The notes below the pieces were generated by a model. It saw only the letters and a list, made by a program, of their open reading frames with translations, did not search any database and was not told where the DNA came from. From NCBI GenBank assembly GCA_904419735.1, contig CAJFSR010000003.1:11290-75289 (forward strand): a DNA stretch of 64,000 bases, given 5' to 3'. The DNA is from Candidatus Neochristensenella gallicola. Its GTDB lineage: Bacteria > Bacillota > Clostridia > Christensenellales > QALW01. The translations under genes and the position numbers were made by a program. Each line of letters opens with the position of its first letter. Within the stretch, counting starts at the first letter, position 1. This document shows positions 2,510-59,316 of this stretch, piece by piece.

Positions 2510-4270
2510 TTACGCGCCAAGCTCTTCGGCTGAAAGCTGTGACATGGCAATTTCCCTGTATACAGGACAAGTTTTGAGCAATTCCTCATGCTTGCCTATG
2601 CCCACGGCCCGTCCTTCGTCCAAAACAACAATTTTATCCGCATCCCGTATAGTGCCGATGCGCTGGGCCACTATCATACGGGTGGTCCCTCCAAGATTTT
2701 CTGCCAGTCCCTTTCTGAGAAGAGAATCGGTTTTATAATCCAAAGCTGAGAACGAATCGTCAAAAATTAGAATTTCCGGCTGCCGTGCCAGCGCCCTTGC
2801 TATGCTCAAACGCTGTTTCTGTCCTCCCGAAACATTGGTGCCTCCCTCTGTAATAGGCGCGTTTATTCCTCCCGGAAGCTTGGAGACAAATTCGGACGCC
2901 TGCGCTAAACTGAGCGCGCGGTTTACGTTTTCATCCGTCTGCTCGGCTGCGCTTTCGCCAAACAGAACATTTTCTTTTATATCCCCGGCAAAAAGGATCG
3001 CCTTCTGCGTAACATAGCCTATGCGGTCATAAAGTGCGTCGAAGGTATATTCCCTTATATCCCGGCCATCTATCAGCACCTGGCCCGAAGTTGCGTCATA
3101 AAAACGCGCCGCAAGGCTGACCAAAGTGGTCTTGCCGCTGCCTGTAGCGCCTATAAAAGCTATAGTCTCCCCTTTGTTTACTTTAAAGCTTATATGCTCT
3201 AAAACATCCTTACCTGAAGAAGGATAATGGAAGGATACGTCTCTGAACTCTACTGTGCCTGTTTCTTCCGCCTGCGTTTGACTGCCCTCATGCAGGTTTA
3301 TTTTGGCTTCCAGCACTTCATTGATACGGCCTGCCGATACTTGAGCAGAAGGCAGGAACATAATCACCATAACCATCATCATTATGGACATGATAACATA
3401 AGTCGCATAAGTGCCGAATACCACTATATCGCCAAAGGTCGCAATTCTGGCTGTCATATCGGCAACATCAACATTATTGACAATGGATGCGCCCACCCAG
3501 TATATGACCAGAGCCAGAGCGTTCATGGCCAGGGATACCGCCGGCATAAGCAACGCCAAGGCACGCTGGTTAAAAAGCTGCGTCCTCATCAAAGTATCAT
3601 TGGCCTTTTCAAATTTCTCCGCCTGATACTCCTCAGCGTTAAAAGCATGAACTACATTGATGCCGGTAAGATTTTCTCTTGAAACCCGGTTAATGTTATC
3701 GGTAAGCTTCTGCACTCGTCTTACACGGGGCAGAATTACTACAATTACGATAGCCATCATAATAATCAGCGCCGCTACGAAACCCGCGGTAATAACAGAA
3801 AGGGTCCAGCTCTTATTTATTATCTTTATAACAGCCCAAACCGCCATAACCGGGGATTTAATAAGTATCTGCAGCCCCATAGCTACCAGCATCTGAATCT
3901 GGGTTATATCGTTTGTCGTACGAGTAATCAGACTGGGAACCGAAAACGCCTGCATTTCCTGATGCCCAAAATCCGCTACTTTATTAAAAACGCCCTCGCG
4001 CAGAGTATAGCTGAAGCCAGCGGCAACCTGCGCCGACAAAAAGCCGCATATAATGCTTAAAACTGCGCTTGCAACAGTACACGCCAGCATCTCAAGGCCG
4101 GTATTTATAATCTCGGAAATAGTACTTCCCGGCGTTTCAATAAGAACCGTCAAATCGCTCATATAGTCCGGCAGGCGCAAATCAAAATAAATCTGGCCCA
4201 GTACCATCACCGCGCACAGACCGGCCATAAGCCATTCCTTAGCGCGCATCCTCTTTAAAATCTTAATCAA
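2510..4270 (-). CDS. ABC exporter, fused permease/ATPase subunit (degenerate NBD: Walker B DD, H-loop Gln)
   Basis: Walker A GATGSGKTT, signature VSGGQKQR, Walker B LIFDDSFS, switch VAQRIGT. Probable TTG start at 4270, 7 nt after AAAGGAG; the ORF track extends to 4303. Confidence 0.88.
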   Translation of the reverse strand: MIKILKRMRAKEWLMAGLCAVMVLGQIYFDLRLPDYMSDLTVLIETPGSTISEIINTGLEMLACTVASAVLSIICGFLSAQVAAGFSYTLREGVFNKVADFGHQEMQAFSVPSLITRTTNDITQIQMLVAMGLQILIKSPVMAVWAVIKIINKSWTLSVITAGFVAALIIMMAIVIVVILPRVRRVQKLTDNINRVSRENLTGINVVHAFNAEEYQAEKFEKANDTLMRTQLFNQRALALLMPAVSLAMNALALVIYWVGASIVNNVDVADMTARIATFGDIVVFGTYATYVIMSIMMMVMVIMFLPSAQVSAGRINEVLEAKINLHEGSQTQAEETGTVEFRDVSFHYPSSGKDVLEHISFKVNKGETIAFIGATGSGKTTLVSLAARFYDATSGQVLIDGRDIREYTFDALYDRIGYVTQKAILFAGDIKENVLFGESAAEQTDENVNRALSLAQASEFVSKLPGGINAPITEGGTNVSGGQKQRLSIARALARQPEILIFDDSFSALDYKTDSLLRKGLAENLGGTTRMIVAQRIGTIRDADKIVVLDEGRAVGIGKHEELLKTCPVYREIAMSQLSAEELGA

Positions 4271-4829: not shown

Positions 4830-6655
4830 AGCAGGGCGCCCCCTTCCCTTCTTAATATAGTCATAAATTCTTCACCGGTAATGGTCTCTTTTTCATACAA
4901 AAACTGCGCCAGTTCATCCAGCTTCCCGCGATTTTCCTTTAAAATCTGCGCAGCTTTTGCATGCTGGGTTTTAATCACCTCTACCACCTCTTTATCTATC
5001 TCCTTCTGAGTTTCAGTCGAGCATATAAGAGAAGTGTCGCCGCCTAAATACTGATTGCTTACAGTCTCCATAGCCGTCATATCAAAATCCCTGCTCATGC
5101 CATACCTGGTTATCATAGCGCGGACAAGCTTAGTCGCCTGCTCTATATCGTTTGAGGCGCCGGTTGTTATCTCGCCGAAAGCTATTTCTTCAGCCGCCCG
5201 ACCCCCGGTATAGGTTGCAATCTTGTTTTCTATTTCCTGCTTAGTTAGAAGGTACTTATCTCCCTGTTCCACCTGCATAGTATAGCCCAGCGCGCCTGAA
5301 GTACGCGGAATTATGGTTATTTTCTGCACCGGAGCGGAATGCGGCTGCATTGCAGCCACCAGCGCGTGCCCTATTTCATGATAGGCCACAACCTTCCTTT
5401 CTTCATCCGAAAGCACGGCGTTTTTCTTCTGATAGCCTGCTATAACCACCTCAATGCTTTCCTCCAAATCTGCCTGTTCCACTATAACGCGGTTATTGCG
5501 CACCGCCCGCAGCGCCGCCTCATTAATAATATTGGCCAGTTCCGCGCCTGAGGCGCCCGCCGCCATACGCGCAATAGTATGAAAATTAACGTCATCCGCC
5601 GTCTTAATCTTTTTGGCATGGACTTTTAAGATTTCCTCCCGGCCTTTGAGGTCGGGCAGCTCTACCGGGATACGCCGGTCAAATCGGCCCGGACGGGTCA
5701 GCGCCGGATCCAGCGCTTCGGGCCGGTTGGTAGCGGCCAGGATTATAACTCCGGTATTGCCCTCGAATCCGTCCATTTCTGTCAAAAGCTGATTAAGGGT
5801 CTGTTCCCGTTCGTCGTTGCCTCCTAATTGACCGTCCCGTCTCTTACCTATTGCGTCAATTTCATCTATAAAAACAATGCAGGGAGCTTTTTCCTTAGCC
5901 TGTCTGAACAAATCACGCACCTTGGAAGCGCCCATACCCACGAACATTTCCACAAATTCAGAGCCTGAAATGGAAAAGAACGGAACATTGGATTCACCCG
6001 CTACCGCCTTGGCCAGCATGGTTTTGCCCGTTCCGGGCGGGCCGACAAGCAAAAGGCCCTTGGGCATTGAAGCGCCTGCCTCCGTGTATTTCTTTGGATT
6101 ATGCAGATAATCCACTATCTCCGCCAGGCTTTCCTTTGCCTCATCCTCGCCTGCAACATCGCTGAAGCGTATTCCCTGCGTGGACTGTACATAAATTTTA
6201 GCATTGCTCTTTCCCATGCCGAAGGCCATGGAATTTTTTCCGCCCGCCTGCTCCATGAGCTTCTTATTCATATATTGCCCCAGGCCGACAAATATAAGAA
6301 GGGGTATGCCCACAGACAGCAGCAGGCTTAGGATGGGAGACATGGGTTCGGTTATCTCACGGGCAAATTTTGCCCCTGAATCGTATAGTCTCTGCGTTAA
6401 ATCCGGGTCCTCCATGATGCCCGTTTTATATATAGCCGTATTATCCTTATCAGTAAAAACTATTTCATAATCCTCAATCTGCACCTCGCCTATATTCTTT
6501 TCTTCAATCATGCTCATAAAGGTGCCGTAATCCACTACAGTTACCTGTCTCTGCGCAAGCAGAGGCGCAACTATCAAATTAAACAGAAGCAGGATTATTA
6601 ACGCGATACCGTAATAATATAAAAGCGATTTTTTAGGAGATTTAACTTCCTGCAA
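4826..6655 (-). CDS. ftsH: ATP-dependent zinc metalloprotease FtsH
   Basis: Two N-terminal TM segments, AAA+ Walker A GPPGTGKT, Walker [32 protein letters not shown] and zinc motif HEIGHA. Confidence 0.96.
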
Positions 6656-11172: not shown

Positions 11173-11595
11173 CCTTCATCTATATAGTGAATAAAAAATA
11201 AATTGTATTGCAAAAAATCATATTTTTATGTCAAAAAATTTTCAGCGTTAGCGTACACGGCAAAACACGCCCAAGTCATGTAAATCTGCCTGTTTTCTAT
11301 ATTTCCTTAAGACGTTTCAGGTCCCGCGTCCCCCGTCCGCCTTAAAAATAGTCAAGTTTAAGCGGTTCTGAGATCTCAAAGTCAAAAACGTGATTTTGCC
11401 TCCCCACAAGATATTAGACGCCATGCGCCGGGCGTATTATGGAGCAAAAGCGGCCCCATACGCAAATTCAGCACTTAAAAACTTCATCATCCGCCGCATG
11501 CTAATATTGGACAAAAAACAAAGCTCTAATTTTGATATATGCAGTACCAAAATTAGAGCTTTTATTTGGAAAATGACCCTAATTGTGATACAAAT

Positions 11596-16407: not shown

Positions 16408-16525
16408 CAGCGCCGCAAGAAACTGCCGCGGCGTTTGCGGCCCGAAGGGCCGCCGGCCGGGCTAACGCCCGGCCCAGGCAGGCGGTAACGCCTGCCAAAC
16501 GCCGCGGCAGTTTCTTGCGGCGCTG
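16408..16525. repeat. GC-rich nested-palindrome element, copy A (30-bp perfect outer arms, three inner hairpins)
   Basis: Arms CAGCGCCGCAAGAAACTGCCGCGGCGTTTG (16408-16437) and its exact reverse complement (16496-16525). Inner hairpins are CGGCCC-GAA-GGGCCG, GGCCGGGC-TAAC-GCCCGGCC and GGCAGGCG-GTAA-CGCCTGCC. Confidence 0.9.
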
Positions 16526-17432: not shown

Positions 17433-17685
17433 GTCCGGCCGTGCTCTGAAAGCGCTCAGCGGTCTTATATAGCTTGAAAAAGCGCAGTAATCCGCATATC
17501 TCCGGTTGACTCTGCGGCTTCAATTTATGAAAACTAGTCTGTTTTAATGGCGGACGAGGGGGCGCAGAGAAAGCGCACCCCCTATTTAGGATAACACAGA
17601 AAACGGGCAAATTTTCCGGCTGCGGCGCATTATCCCCTGCATACTAACACTAAAATATAATTATAAATAAAATGCGAGTAAAGCT

Positions 17686-47288: not shown

Positions 47289-47431
47289 GAGCCAAGGCTC
47301 AAGCGCCCAATGCAAAAACGGCGGCGTTTGCGGCCTGAAAGGCCGCCGGGCGAAGCTCAAAAGCTTCGTCCGGGCAGGCTCACAGCCTGCCAAACGCCGC
47401 CGTTTTTGCATTGGGCGCTTGAGCCTGGCTC
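47289..47431. repeat. GC-rich nested-palindrome element, copy D (35-bp perfect arms plus a 6-bp extension past a 1-nt bulge)
   Basis: GGCTCAAGCGCCCAATGCAAAAACGGCGGCGTTTG (47296-47330) is the exact reverse complement of 47391-47425. Inner hairpins are CGGCC-TGAAA-GGCCG, CCGGGCGAAGCT-CAAA-AGCTTCGTCCGG and GCAGGCT-CAC-AGCCTGC. Confidence 0.9.
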
Positions 47432-48910: not shown

Positions 48911-48932
48911 TATTTAAAATTAAAATTATAAG

Positions 48933-49187
48933 TACCCTCAGAAGGCATAAAATTTGTGTCCTGCTGTGCTGCTTTGGCTCCATGTACGCCAGGTACATGT
49001 CGTTTAAGAGCACTTTACCCGGCACAAATTTTATGCCTTCTGACGCTAAGACCTAAAACGGCGAGAATTTCTTCATTTCCAAGACAGACGAAGAAAGCGT
49101 ACCGGGGAGTACGCTGATTGAGGATAACGCGGAAAATGAAGAAATTCTCACGCTTGGAGGAGTGCAGTTACTGGTAAACTGAGGGTA
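48933..49187 (+). repeat. structured 255-bp element, family F copy 1
   Basis: Termini are TACCCTCAG / CTGAGGGTA. There is an 18-bp perfect stem (48941-48958 with 49023-40) around a conserved core (48966-49013), and a second stem of 18-19 bp (49063-80 with 49131-49). Confidence 0.8.
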
Positions 49188-58272: not shown

Positions 58273-58294
58273 GCCCGCCTCAGGCGGGCTTTTT
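58273..58294 (+). terminator. intrinsic terminator of the GNAT gene
   Basis: GCCCGCC-TCA-GGCGGGC followed by TTTTT. Confidence 0.88.
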
Positions 58295-58308
58295 ATATCT
58301 GATAAACT

Positions 58309-58573
58309 CCCTAAATTAACAAGGGCATATACGGTCAGGACAGGGCTGTTTGAGTGTCATGCCGTGCTGCTTTTCGCTCTGTGTACGTCCGGTACACGTC
58401 GTTCAAACGCCTTACAGGTTACGGAAGCGGCCGCTTCGACCCCCTGCGGTCTGATTTCGGCATTTTCAAGGAAGCGGAATGAGGCGTAATGAACGCACAC
58501 CCATTCACGATGACACAGCAAATGCCGAAATCAGACCGCAGGAGGCGTGTATCCTCCCCTTGTCAATTTAGGG
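58309..58573 (+). repeat. structured 265-bp element, family F copy 2
   Basis: Termini CCCTAAATTAACAAGGG / CCCTTGTCAATTTAGGG (one mismatch), conserved core 58364-58411, and a 22-bp perfect stem (58444-65 with 58520-41). Confidence 0.8.
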
Positions 58574-58727
58574 TAAGCTAATACAATCAGAACGCGATTC
58601 TGTTTTGTATTAGCGCCCGCCCCGCATTATTACACAGACGGTAAATACTCCGGCATATTTTGGACTGTGCGCCCCGCAGCTATCCACGCTCCCAGCAAAA
58701 ATACTTGACCCCAGCGAAAGGAAATCC

Positions 58728-58838
58728 TTAAATTATATGAGGATACAATAAGCAGAAATACCAGAACCTTTTTTCCAATGACAGCTGCATATCAAAACAG
58801 AAGAATTTCCCCGGTACGGCGCATTGTATAACGTACAT
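58728..58838 (-). CDS. 36-codon ORF with strong SD (speculative small protein)
   Basis: AGGAGGA, 5 nt, ATG. Product is MYVIQCAVPGKFFCFDMQLSLEKRFWYFCLLYPHII. A 9-bp inverted repeat GCATTGTAT/ATACAATGC brackets the SD and start codon. The ORF is below the ORF-track size cutoff. Confidence 0.25.
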   Translation of the reverse strand: MYVIQCAVPGKFFCFDMQLSLEKRFWYFCLLYPHII

Positions 58839-58927
58839 AAAAGTCCTCCTATGTCATACAATGCATATAAGAAAAGCGGCTTTAAGCCGCAATTTTATCA
58901 ATTAATTGAAAAACTGCTATGTTTCGC

Positions 58928-58956
58928 TTGACAAAGAAATGTGCCAATGATATTAT
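58928..58956 (+). promoter_or_regulatory. trp operon promoter
   Basis: TTGACA (58928-33), 17-nt spacer, TATTAT (58951-56). Confidence 0.75.
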
Positions 58957-58964
58957 ATTTTTAA

Positions 58965-59316
58965 TTTAAAAGCGCAAACCGTTGAAGCGGAGATAACGGC
59001 AATAATGCCTTTACAGAGAGCCTGCGATGCTGCAAATCAGGCAAGAAACAGATTGTCAAATGGGCCGCTGAGGGTGCAGTCAAATGATATATATTATCAG
59101 AGTAATCTGCAACGTGTTGGCATACGTCAGTTGCCGGGGATATGCTGGTATCCCGCCAAGCGCACGGATAAAACCGTGAATTCAAGGTGGCACCGCGGAT
59201 ATGCTGTACTTATTATAGAGTATCTTATTCGTCCTTGACAGATAGGCTAATTCTGTCAGGGATATTTTTGTTTTAACTCCTCTGACCGAAAAAGTCCGGG
59301 GAGTTTTTATTTTCAG
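58965..59316 (+). promoter_or_regulatory. T-box riboswitch leader, tryptophan specifier (UGG)
   Basis: AGAGAG box in stem I, UGG at 59061-63 followed by a purine, T-box sequence AAGGUGGCACCGCGG (59184-98). Two terminator-like hairpins follow: 59233-59262 plus a U tract, and 59275-59312 plus UUUUUAUUUU. Confidence 0.88.

Follow-up and report, generated by a model that had tools for sequence, protein, structure and literature searches.

INTRODUCTION

Duplication of a TA target dinucleotide is a hallmark of IS630/Tc1-mariner transposition. [quoted passage not shown] The same hallmark of IS630/Tc1-mariner movement has been described in work on bacterial MITEs, which are recognized by TIRs, TA termini, target duplication and transcripts that form stable stem-loops (PMC2229807). 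For one such repeat, RUP of Streptococcus pneumoniae, movement by IS630-Spn1 at TA sites has been proposed (PMC2229807; PMC3049150). Hairpins in mobile repeats can also be conserved: those of REPINs are kept by common compensatory changes, a pattern that has been read as selection on the replicating entity and not as host function (PMC3116915). Here, we analyze a palindromic element at positions 58307 to 58575 of a 64,000-nucleotide stretch of DNA from Candidatus Neochristensenella gallicola (contig CAJFSR010000003.1, positions 11,290 to 75,289), which we refer to as the window. An original prediction, made from the sequence of the window, had described this element (copy 2) as a homologue of a second element upstream (copy 1) and had taken the compensatory base changes between the two as the signature of a constraint on structure.

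We consider it probable that copy 2 is a decayed copy of a MITE of about 277 bp, whose stems are maintained in the transposing lineage and not by a host RNA function at this site. The mobility of the family is evident from its TIRs, TA duplication, dispersal, polymorphism and derivatives. We found no earlier description of its diagnostic sequences in the literature searched, and the best reading is that the family is previously undescribed.

RESULTS

Copy 2 has the termini of a transposable element

Copy 2 lies on the plus strand of the window and spans 58307 to 58575 when its flanking dinucleotides are included, a 5' CT mutated from TA and a 3' TA. The original prediction had located it correctly, at 58309 to 58573, with these dinucleotides left outside. 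A hidden Markov model (HMM) of the family aligns with copy 2 from profile position 3 to 275, at 58309 to 58575 (E = 1e-55), indicating a copy of full extent, though a decayed one. In an alignment of family members (alignment A2), copy 2 clusters with copies L234a, L225a and L205a and belongs to what we call the c2-type subfamily. Its outermost stem pairs the 17 nucleotides of CCCTAAATTAACAAGGG at 58309 to 58325 with CCCTTGTCAATTTAGGG at 58557 to 58573, the two arms being 94% complementary and the second being followed by TA. The c2-type sequence TACCCTAAATTGACAAGGG, which matches the 5' arm, is present in eight metagenome copies. This outer stem is the TIR of a transposon, not the closing stem of an RNA.

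The TIRs flank two folded domains. Domain P2 (58334 to 58441; columns 28 to 170 of alignment A2, helices 3 to 5) encloses a conserved core, GTGTCnTGCnGTGCTGC..GCTC, together with a short hairpin; its stem is imperfect in copy 2 because the 3' arm lacks 10 nucleotides (CTGTCTGACT) that are found in intact c2-type copies. The short hairpin in the core, GTGTAC-GTCCG-GTACAC (58381 to 58397), has arms at 58381 to 58386 and 58392 to 58397 and a GTCCG loop. Its counterpart in copy 1, at about 48981 to 48999, reads CATGTAC/GTACATG, and the paired substitution that had been reported between the two is indeed present in the sequence. Family-wide, this hairpin (helix 6) is 94% paired, with both-sided change in four of its seven pairs. 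Domain P3 (58440 to 58545) consists of a long stem around conserved internal loops (CAAGGnAGnnGAA, ATTnAnGATnAC) and a small distal hairpin formed by 58484 to 58487 and 58493 to 58496. The arms of the long stem (helix 7; 58440 to 58465 and 58520 to 58545) are each 26 nucleotides long and 96% complementary, and they contain the uninterrupted 22-bp helix that had been predicted between 58444 to 58465 and 58520 to 58541, which we confirmed. Across the family, both-sided change was found in 19 of the 27 pairs of this stem.

Copies 1 and 2 are 77% identical. Their alignment bears out the reported exchange of TT/AA for GG/CC and reveals another, of GAGA/TCTC for TCTG/CAGA, with six positions compensated on both arms. 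The single-strand folds of the two copies are far more stable than those of shuffled sequences (z = -6.0 and -7.9; 0 of 200 shuffles equally good). Copy 2 carries damage, namely the change of its 5' TA to CT, one mismatch in the TIR and the 10-nucleotide deletion in the 3' arm of P2. Its coding capacity is limited to short overlapping open reading frames (ORFs) of 30 to 79 amino acids on both strands.

The family is dispersed across metagenome contigs

We derived a scan pattern, GACGANG N20-36 AGGATAACNCNGAAAA, from the positions common to the two most distant members in the window, and it matched at least 120 loci in metagenome contigs (labeled L and a number below). Real copies were present in about 85 of the 120 loci listed, and the family is therefore represented at no fewer than 85 loci, far outside this genome. 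Among the matches listed, we assembled a full-length set of 88 copies, 82 of them unique. Intact copies are mostly 276 to 278 nucleotides long. TIRs of 17 to 27 bp are found in every subfamily, and the helix that they form (helix 1) is 93% paired. The A-type subfamily begins with TACCCTCAGTTTACAAGGAACTACACG and ends with CGTGTAGTTCCTTGTAAACTGAGGGTA, the B-type subfamily begins with TAGCGTCAGTGTACAAGGGG, and TIR sequences of the family include CCCTCAGTTTACAAGG, CCCTAAATTGACAAGGG and GCGTCAGTGTACAAGGGG. Intact copies contain no reading frame, and the ORFs that enter copies are extensions of neighboring genes.

TIR pairs are spaced by about 277, 165 or 120 nucleotides, the latter two classes being internal-deletion derivatives. 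In the form of about 165 nucleotides (L208:9578-9741, L146:3705-3866 and 6485-6647, L167:1859-2021), profile positions of about 89 to 198 are absent, and in the form of about 120 nucleotides (L254:11935-12054, L215:4253-4372), the 5' TIR is joined straight to the P3 loop via a shared CAAGG. Contigs commonly hold several copies, up to four in 13 kb among the loci listed, and different subfamilies occur together on single contigs (L198, L205, L234, L257 and L182).

We also looked for the family on other replicons. BLAST searches of plasmids and phages with copy 2 and with A-type and B-type copies gave zero matches, and the key scan pattern met viral contigs at three chance matches only. Further scans with core patterns (GTGTCNTGCNGTGCTGC in viral contigs, GTGCTGC..TTT.GCTC..GTCGTT in genome contigs, and a P3 pattern in viral contigs) likewise returned chance matches only, as judged by BLAST and nhmmer. 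Because TIR scans of viral contigs gave few matches, single-sided and attributable to chance, we conclude that the MITE is not phage-borne.

Nested insertions and absent copies document mobility

A TA dinucleotide stands at each end of about nine-tenths of the 82 unique full-length copies, and the flanking sequences are unrelated between copies. Two nested insertions establish that the TA is duplicated on insertion. On contig L193, an A-type copy has split the 3' TIR belonging to a c2-type copy (..CTTGTCAATT-TA-[CCCTCAG...CTGAGGG]-TA-GGGTA; the interrupted TIR is also given as ..CCCCTTGTCAATT), and deleting the insert together with one TA restores the intact c2-type TIR CCCCTTGTCAATTTAGGGTA exactly. 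On contig L182, the TA that ends a B-type copy is the site of an A-type copy. The evidence for target duplication comes from nested insertions within the family and from the TA that borders nearly all copies.

Copies are also polymorphic among strains and species. Strain L073, represented by a contig that encodes the same GNAT protein, lacks window positions 58297 to 58905. At the orthologous site, copy 1 is missing from the sister species represented by L132 and L133; in L132, the GNAT gene is not followed by copy 2 either. For the gene upstream of copy 1, the sister-species orthologues are 88% and 80% identical, and the intergenic region that follows is 161 to 166 nucleotides long there versus 372 nucleotides in the window. 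Four loci in which the FAD gene upstream of copy 1 is represented by a different allele (L139, L141, L143 and L144, at about 3314 to 4248) have a 935-nucleotide AT-rich insertion in place of window positions 48928 to 48956, which include the first 24 or so nucleotides of copy 1.

The sequences found at these sites deserve separate description. In strain L073, about 110 nucleotides of unrelated AT-rich sequence (L073:3564-3675) stand where the window has copy 2 and an adjoining relic described below, which makes the site a replacement and not a clean empty site. The site in L132 orthologous to that of copy 1 holds an unrelated element of about 150 nucleotides (L132:1486-1651) that has an inner stem and is closed by a stem of 16 bp (CAATCAGAATACAATG / CATTGTATTCTGATTG); it may represent another intergenic repeat family. 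The 935-nucleotide insertion encodes a 158-amino-acid cysteine-rich ORF (..HCSNCGSCGGG..CGC..) without a Pfam match. Four independent Logan contigs (L136, L137, L138 and L144) end inside copy 1 at about 49000, just past the core hairpin, which suggests that the repeat or a polymorphism breaks assemblies at this point.

All helices covary between subfamilies

We examined covariation in alignment A2, which comprises 40 non-redundant copies, using slid-partner and shuffle controls. RNAalifold gave a poor consensus on this alignment because of truncated rows, and we instead folded the majority consensus without isolated pairs. The consensus folds as a three-way junction formed by P1 (the TIRs), P2 (the core and short GTAC hairpin) and P3 (the internal loops and distal hairpin). 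In this fold, 89% of alignment cells are paired, versus 35 to 48% with slid partners. Both-sided change affects 51 of 95 pairs and 222 cells; with slid partners the figures are 21 to 30 pairs and 49 to 91 cells, and none of 500 shuffles attained the observed values. The sequences in alignment A2 are related, and the shuffle controls therefore overstate significance, a problem from which the slid-partner control is free. The covariation proposed from two copies is thus upheld when more homologues are considered.

The covariation is organized by subfamily. Folding the consensus of each subfamily gives the same junction, with energies of -134 to -166 kcal/mol. Every subfamily has a P1, P2 and P3 of its own, all perfectly self-complementary, and several subfamilies coexist per genome. 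Subfamilies differ by blocks in both arms: a block in P3 reads CTTC, CAGCG, GCCTG, CGGTG or CGGC, and in P2 the whole upper stem is swapped. Because copy 1 is of the A-type and copy 2 of the c2-type, the "compensatory" differences between them are differences between subfamilies.

We considered whether the copies are genes for a structured noncoding RNA, or cis-regulatory RNAs, present in multiple copies and closed by the outer helix. This interpretation draws on the strong covariation in every helix, the conserved internal loops, the very stable folds and the co-orientation of all four window copies with their upstream genes. The covariation itself, however, does not discriminate an RNA family from a MITE, because DNA palindromes are also expected to covary. 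Moreover, an RNA gene accounts poorly for the TA duplication and nested insertions, the hundreds of copies with unrelated flanks, the deletion derivatives, and the absence of copies from sister species and some strains. Copies occur in both orientations relative to genes, show no strand asymmetry and decay neutrally (see below), and both window copies are damaged. Rfam searches with the window copies and with intact copies of the A-type and B-type, run both at the gathering threshold and up to E <= 10, returned only chance-level microRNA and small nucleolar RNA matches. Taken together, these observations make an RNA gene or regulator highly improbable. The suggestion of structural constraint accordingly stands in one respect, in that pairing is preserved family-wide, and fails in another, since MITE features, neutral decay and strand symmetry do not support a structured RNA constrained at its site.

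Several specific RNA classes were also rejected. Omega-RNA, bridge RNA, retron noncoding RNA, 6S RNA, signal recognition particle RNA and Y RNA were ruled out by the absence of an Rfam match and an associated gene, together with the evidence for mobility. For the first three, the neighbors are unrelated housekeeping genes and not TnpB/IscB, IS110 recombinase or reverse transcriptase genes, and a HEARO match is absent. In a separate observation, the minus strand of L185:8390-8458 weakly resembles the C/D-box RNA SNORD65 over the P3 loop (20.7 bits, E = 0.035), with CUGA and GAUGA-like words; this resemblance is probably due to chance.

Resident copies decay without constraint on pairing

We then asked at what level pairing is kept. 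Resident A-type copies differ from the consensus of their subfamily at 6.7% of paired and 8.2% of unpaired positions. Changes in the stems are overwhelmingly one-sided, 415 versus 12 compensated, and the one-sided changes include 108 that yield G·U and 114 that yield A·C. In a separate count, G·U and A·C mismatches number 24 and 35 in the TIRs, 30 and 44 in P3, and 83 and 71 among rare variants. Folding is about as good on one strand as on the other, and the better-folding strand varies by subfamily. Compensation arises only along the lineages that founded subfamilies, and resident copies decay neutrally. Strand symmetry, neutral decay and orientation all speak against the resident copies serving the host as RNA. 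Within-species single-nucleotide polymorphisms (SNPs) in copy 1 include uncompensated changes in the long stem, such as C49147G and G49138T; the SNP density of copy 1, 0.8 to 3.1% versus 0 to 9% at four-fold degenerate sites of neighboring genes, is uninformative.

These data bear on two other accounts in which the element is a MITE. In the first, selection acting on RNA preserves the stems: copies would land within transcription units in either orientation, and the host would tolerate only those with transcripts that fold, from both strands, into compact and inert hairpins, for instance as 3'-end stabilizers, RNase III substrates or insulators. Selection acting on both strands predicts the G·U / A·C symmetry that we observed and agrees with the similar folding of the two strands, and transcripts of known MITEs do form stable stem-loops (PMC2229807). 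Placement is also compatible with this account, as all copies but one are intergenic by crude ORF calls, usually a few to a few hundred nucleotides from a gene end, with a mild excess in the orientation of the upstream gene (33 same and 17 opposite, compared with 23 and 30 relative to the downstream gene). However, the excess of one-sided changes and the similar divergence of paired and unpaired positions give no sign that purifying selection maintains pairing once copies are resident, and damaged copies persist. In addition, our terminator scan found zero terminator-like sites inside copy 2 and one weak minus-strand site inside copy 1, and outward promoters occur at control frequency. We therefore regard selection at the RNA level as unlikely.

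The outward promoters in question are hybrid promoters that would use a -35-like TTGTCA or TTGTAA in the TIR. They were rejected as a feature of the family, being present at 17.7% of 130 element ends versus a control expectation of 17.8%. The end of copy 2 contains one candidate of this type, TTGTCA-16-TACAAT at 58560 to 58587.

In the second account, which takes up the template-switch alternative named in the original prediction, perfect stems are a mechanical by-product of intrastrand template switching or hairpin-templated gap repair during replication or transposition, with no selection involved. One arm would be recopied from the other, so that every change, including multi-base blocks, would be mirrored immediately. 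The difference of whole blocks in both arms between subfamilies, the strand-symmetric pattern and the lack of constraint on resident copies are all in keeping with such a process. Template switching on chromosomal copies would nevertheless keep resident copies perfect, which they are not; given that resident copies are imperfect, correction would have to be coupled to transposition. In addition, unpaired loops are conserved and the three-way architecture is fixed in all subfamilies, which suggests that more than palindromy is preserved. A mechanical origin is possible in our estimation, if doubtful.

The element may be mobilized in trans

Because resident copies are neither corrected nor constrained, we rank explanations linked to transposition first. 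In the explanation that we favor, a MITE mobilized in trans, movement would be of the cut-and-paste type, catalyzed by a TIR-recognizing DDE transposase of the IS630/Tc1-mariner type; TA duplication is our one reason for naming this transposase family. Fold-back or cruciform geometry may help the transposase to bring the ends together, or, alternatively, each arm might be recopied from the other during repair. The perfect palindromy of master copies has three possible causes, namely selection for competence in transposition, selection for harmless folding of transcripts from either strand, and arm-to-arm recopying during repair.

A more far-reaching version holds that mobility itself requires the three-way junction and the invariant internal loops (CAAGGCAGACGA / GAGGAUAAC), either with a folded single strand or cruciform as the form that is recognized or processed, or with the element providing its transposase with an RNA scaffold. 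We consider this version rather improbable. If it were true, the family would be the first TA-duplicating bacterial MITE family with structure-dependent transposition and with subfamilies whose stems co-evolve.

Several points weigh against mobilization of a MITE in trans. To our knowledge, DDE cut-and-paste transposition has no need for internal hairpins, and the proposed mechanism leaves the perfect pairing of P2 and P3 unexplained. Classical bacterial MITEs are 100 to 200 bp long, and the present element exceeds them both in length, at 277 bp, and in complexity, given its three helical domains. Neither the window nor 932 kb of contigs that carry the MITE yielded a TIR pair more than 300 nucleotides apart, as would be expected of an autonomous partner. 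Among 688 ORFs from the loci, no transposase-like family was present in the recurrent clusters inspected, with a minority of ORFs screened against Pfam; the recurrent families inspected are a subtilisin-like protease, membrane proteins and ABC transporters. The mild orientation bias described above could reflect some effect at the RNA level. Two properties of the sample also count here: recovery of the copies depended on their P3 loop motif, which biases the sample such that conservation of that motif cannot be judged from it, and metagenome contigs may be chimeric at repeats. At several loci, one flank of a copy is common and the other flank different.

Two other classes of mobile element were ruled out. 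REPINs mobilized by RAYT transposases are at odds with the TA duplication, the long perfect TIRs and the 277-nucleotide length, and a RAYT-like ORF does not recur near copies. An IS200/IS605-derived PATE is likewise excluded by the TIRs and the TA duplication.

Other repeats and regulatory elements in the window

The window contains four copies and one older relic of the family, about one per 13 to 16 kb. Copy 1 (48933 to 49187, plus strand) is an A-type MITE that matches the family HMM from position 23 to 275 (E = 1e-74). In comparison with intact A-type copies, it lacks 20 to 23 nucleotides at its 5' end, after TACCCTCAG, through a deletion between two TCAG repeats. Copies 3 and 4 are older and diverged, and they share the conserved internal loop of the long-stem domain. 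Copy 3 (11246 to 11467, minus strand) matches the family profile with E = 1e-13 and a two-copy profile (nhmmer) with E = 1e-6 at 11474 to 11323. Copy 4 (17501 to 17647, plus strand) matches the two profiles with E = 4e-15 and, at 17477 to 17630, with E = 1e-5; its homology probably starts near 17433, and its orthologues in L196 and L244 were picked up by the metagenome pattern scan.

The surroundings of copy 2 are as originally described. Upstream, the terminator of the GNAT gene occupies 58273 to 58289 and is followed by a T run. Downstream come a hairpin at 58577 to 58614, the trp promoter (TTGACA-17-TATTAT, 58928 to 58956) and the trp T-box leader (58973 to 59239). The leader scores 77.2 bits, below the Rfam gathering score of 93, and it was missed at the default threshold for this reason.

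Between the hairpin and the promoter lies the older relic (58615 to 58870, plus strand), which adjoins copy 2 and still shows a vestige of the P3 loop (GAGGATAC..GCAGAAAT). The relic is homologous to L132:3105-3400, a sister-species insertion at a different locus, where it separates tmk from a decarboxylase gene. This homologue matches the family HMM weakly (E = 9e-6), and the relic itself does not reach E = 1; we read it as a relic of the family because of its sister-species homologue. The relic also contains a -35-like TTGACC and a minus-strand ORF of 36 amino acids (58728 to 58838) with an AGGAGG site. This ORF was ruled out as a gene, as its frame is not kept in the sister-species homologue. 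The hairpin between copy 2 and the relic has the arms GCTAATACAAtCAGAA..TTCTGtTTTGTATTAGC, and the words AATCAGA and ATACAAT are met again at the termini of further intergenic elements of L132 (1500-1640 and 3105-3400). Elsewhere in the window, a separate GC-rich palindromic family is present in two copies, at 16409 to 16524 and 47302 to 47419, which are 77 to 78% identical and laid out as AGCGCC..GGCGTTTGCGGCC.GAA.GGCCGCCGG.CG followed by an inverted partner.

DISCUSSION

Our analysis removes a false lead, in that covariation between two copies that resembled the trace of a new structured RNA is the signature of two transposon subfamilies. It also defines an abundant repeat family in uncultured human-gut Clostridia. 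This family contributes to the shape of intergenic regions and differs from strain to strain; it may also interrupt or misjoin assemblies, and it would contaminate comparative searches for noncoding RNAs. The combination of compensation between subfamilies and neutral decay of resident copies provides a natural system in which to ask why mobile repeats keep their hairpins, whether through selection for transposition or through correction of palindromes.

The family has the features by which bacterial MITEs are defined in practice: TIRs, TA termini, target duplication, no ORF, many copies and stable folds. In its behavior, it is closest to the RUP and Correia elements. It stands apart from known families through its greater length, its three-domain fold with conserved loops and the presence of several subfamilies within a genome. 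Like RUP, it is found in Firmicutes as a non-coding, intergenic repeat with TIRs, a TA terminus and target, and many copies, and it shares the tendency to insert in or near mobile elements, seen here as the nested insertions on L193 and L182. RUP differs in being 107 bp long with nine contiguous paired TIR bases, a simple stem-loop and a known matching insertion sequence (IS), whereas the present element is about 277 bp long, with TIRs of up to 27 bp and three conserved helical domains with conserved internal loops, and no matching IS was found in the window or its carrier contigs. Correia (NEMIS) elements of Neisseria resemble it in their long TIRs (24 bp), TA duplication, long and short forms, and hairpin transcripts, and also in that their transposase has not been identified (PMC2229807). 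Unlike it, they are 107 to 155 bp long, form a single hairpin, carry an IHF site and promoter elements, and belong to another phylum; the present family folds as a three-way junction and is not enriched in promoters.

More distant comparisons are also instructive. REPINs are, like the present elements, mobile intergenic repeats with hairpins preserved by compensation, but they are about 70 to 110 nucleotides long, make no target duplication and are linked to a Y1 transposase (IS200-like) whose substrate is single-stranded DNA. Stowaway elements share TA duplication, TIRs, size and fold-back structure with the family described here, with no sequence relationship between the two.

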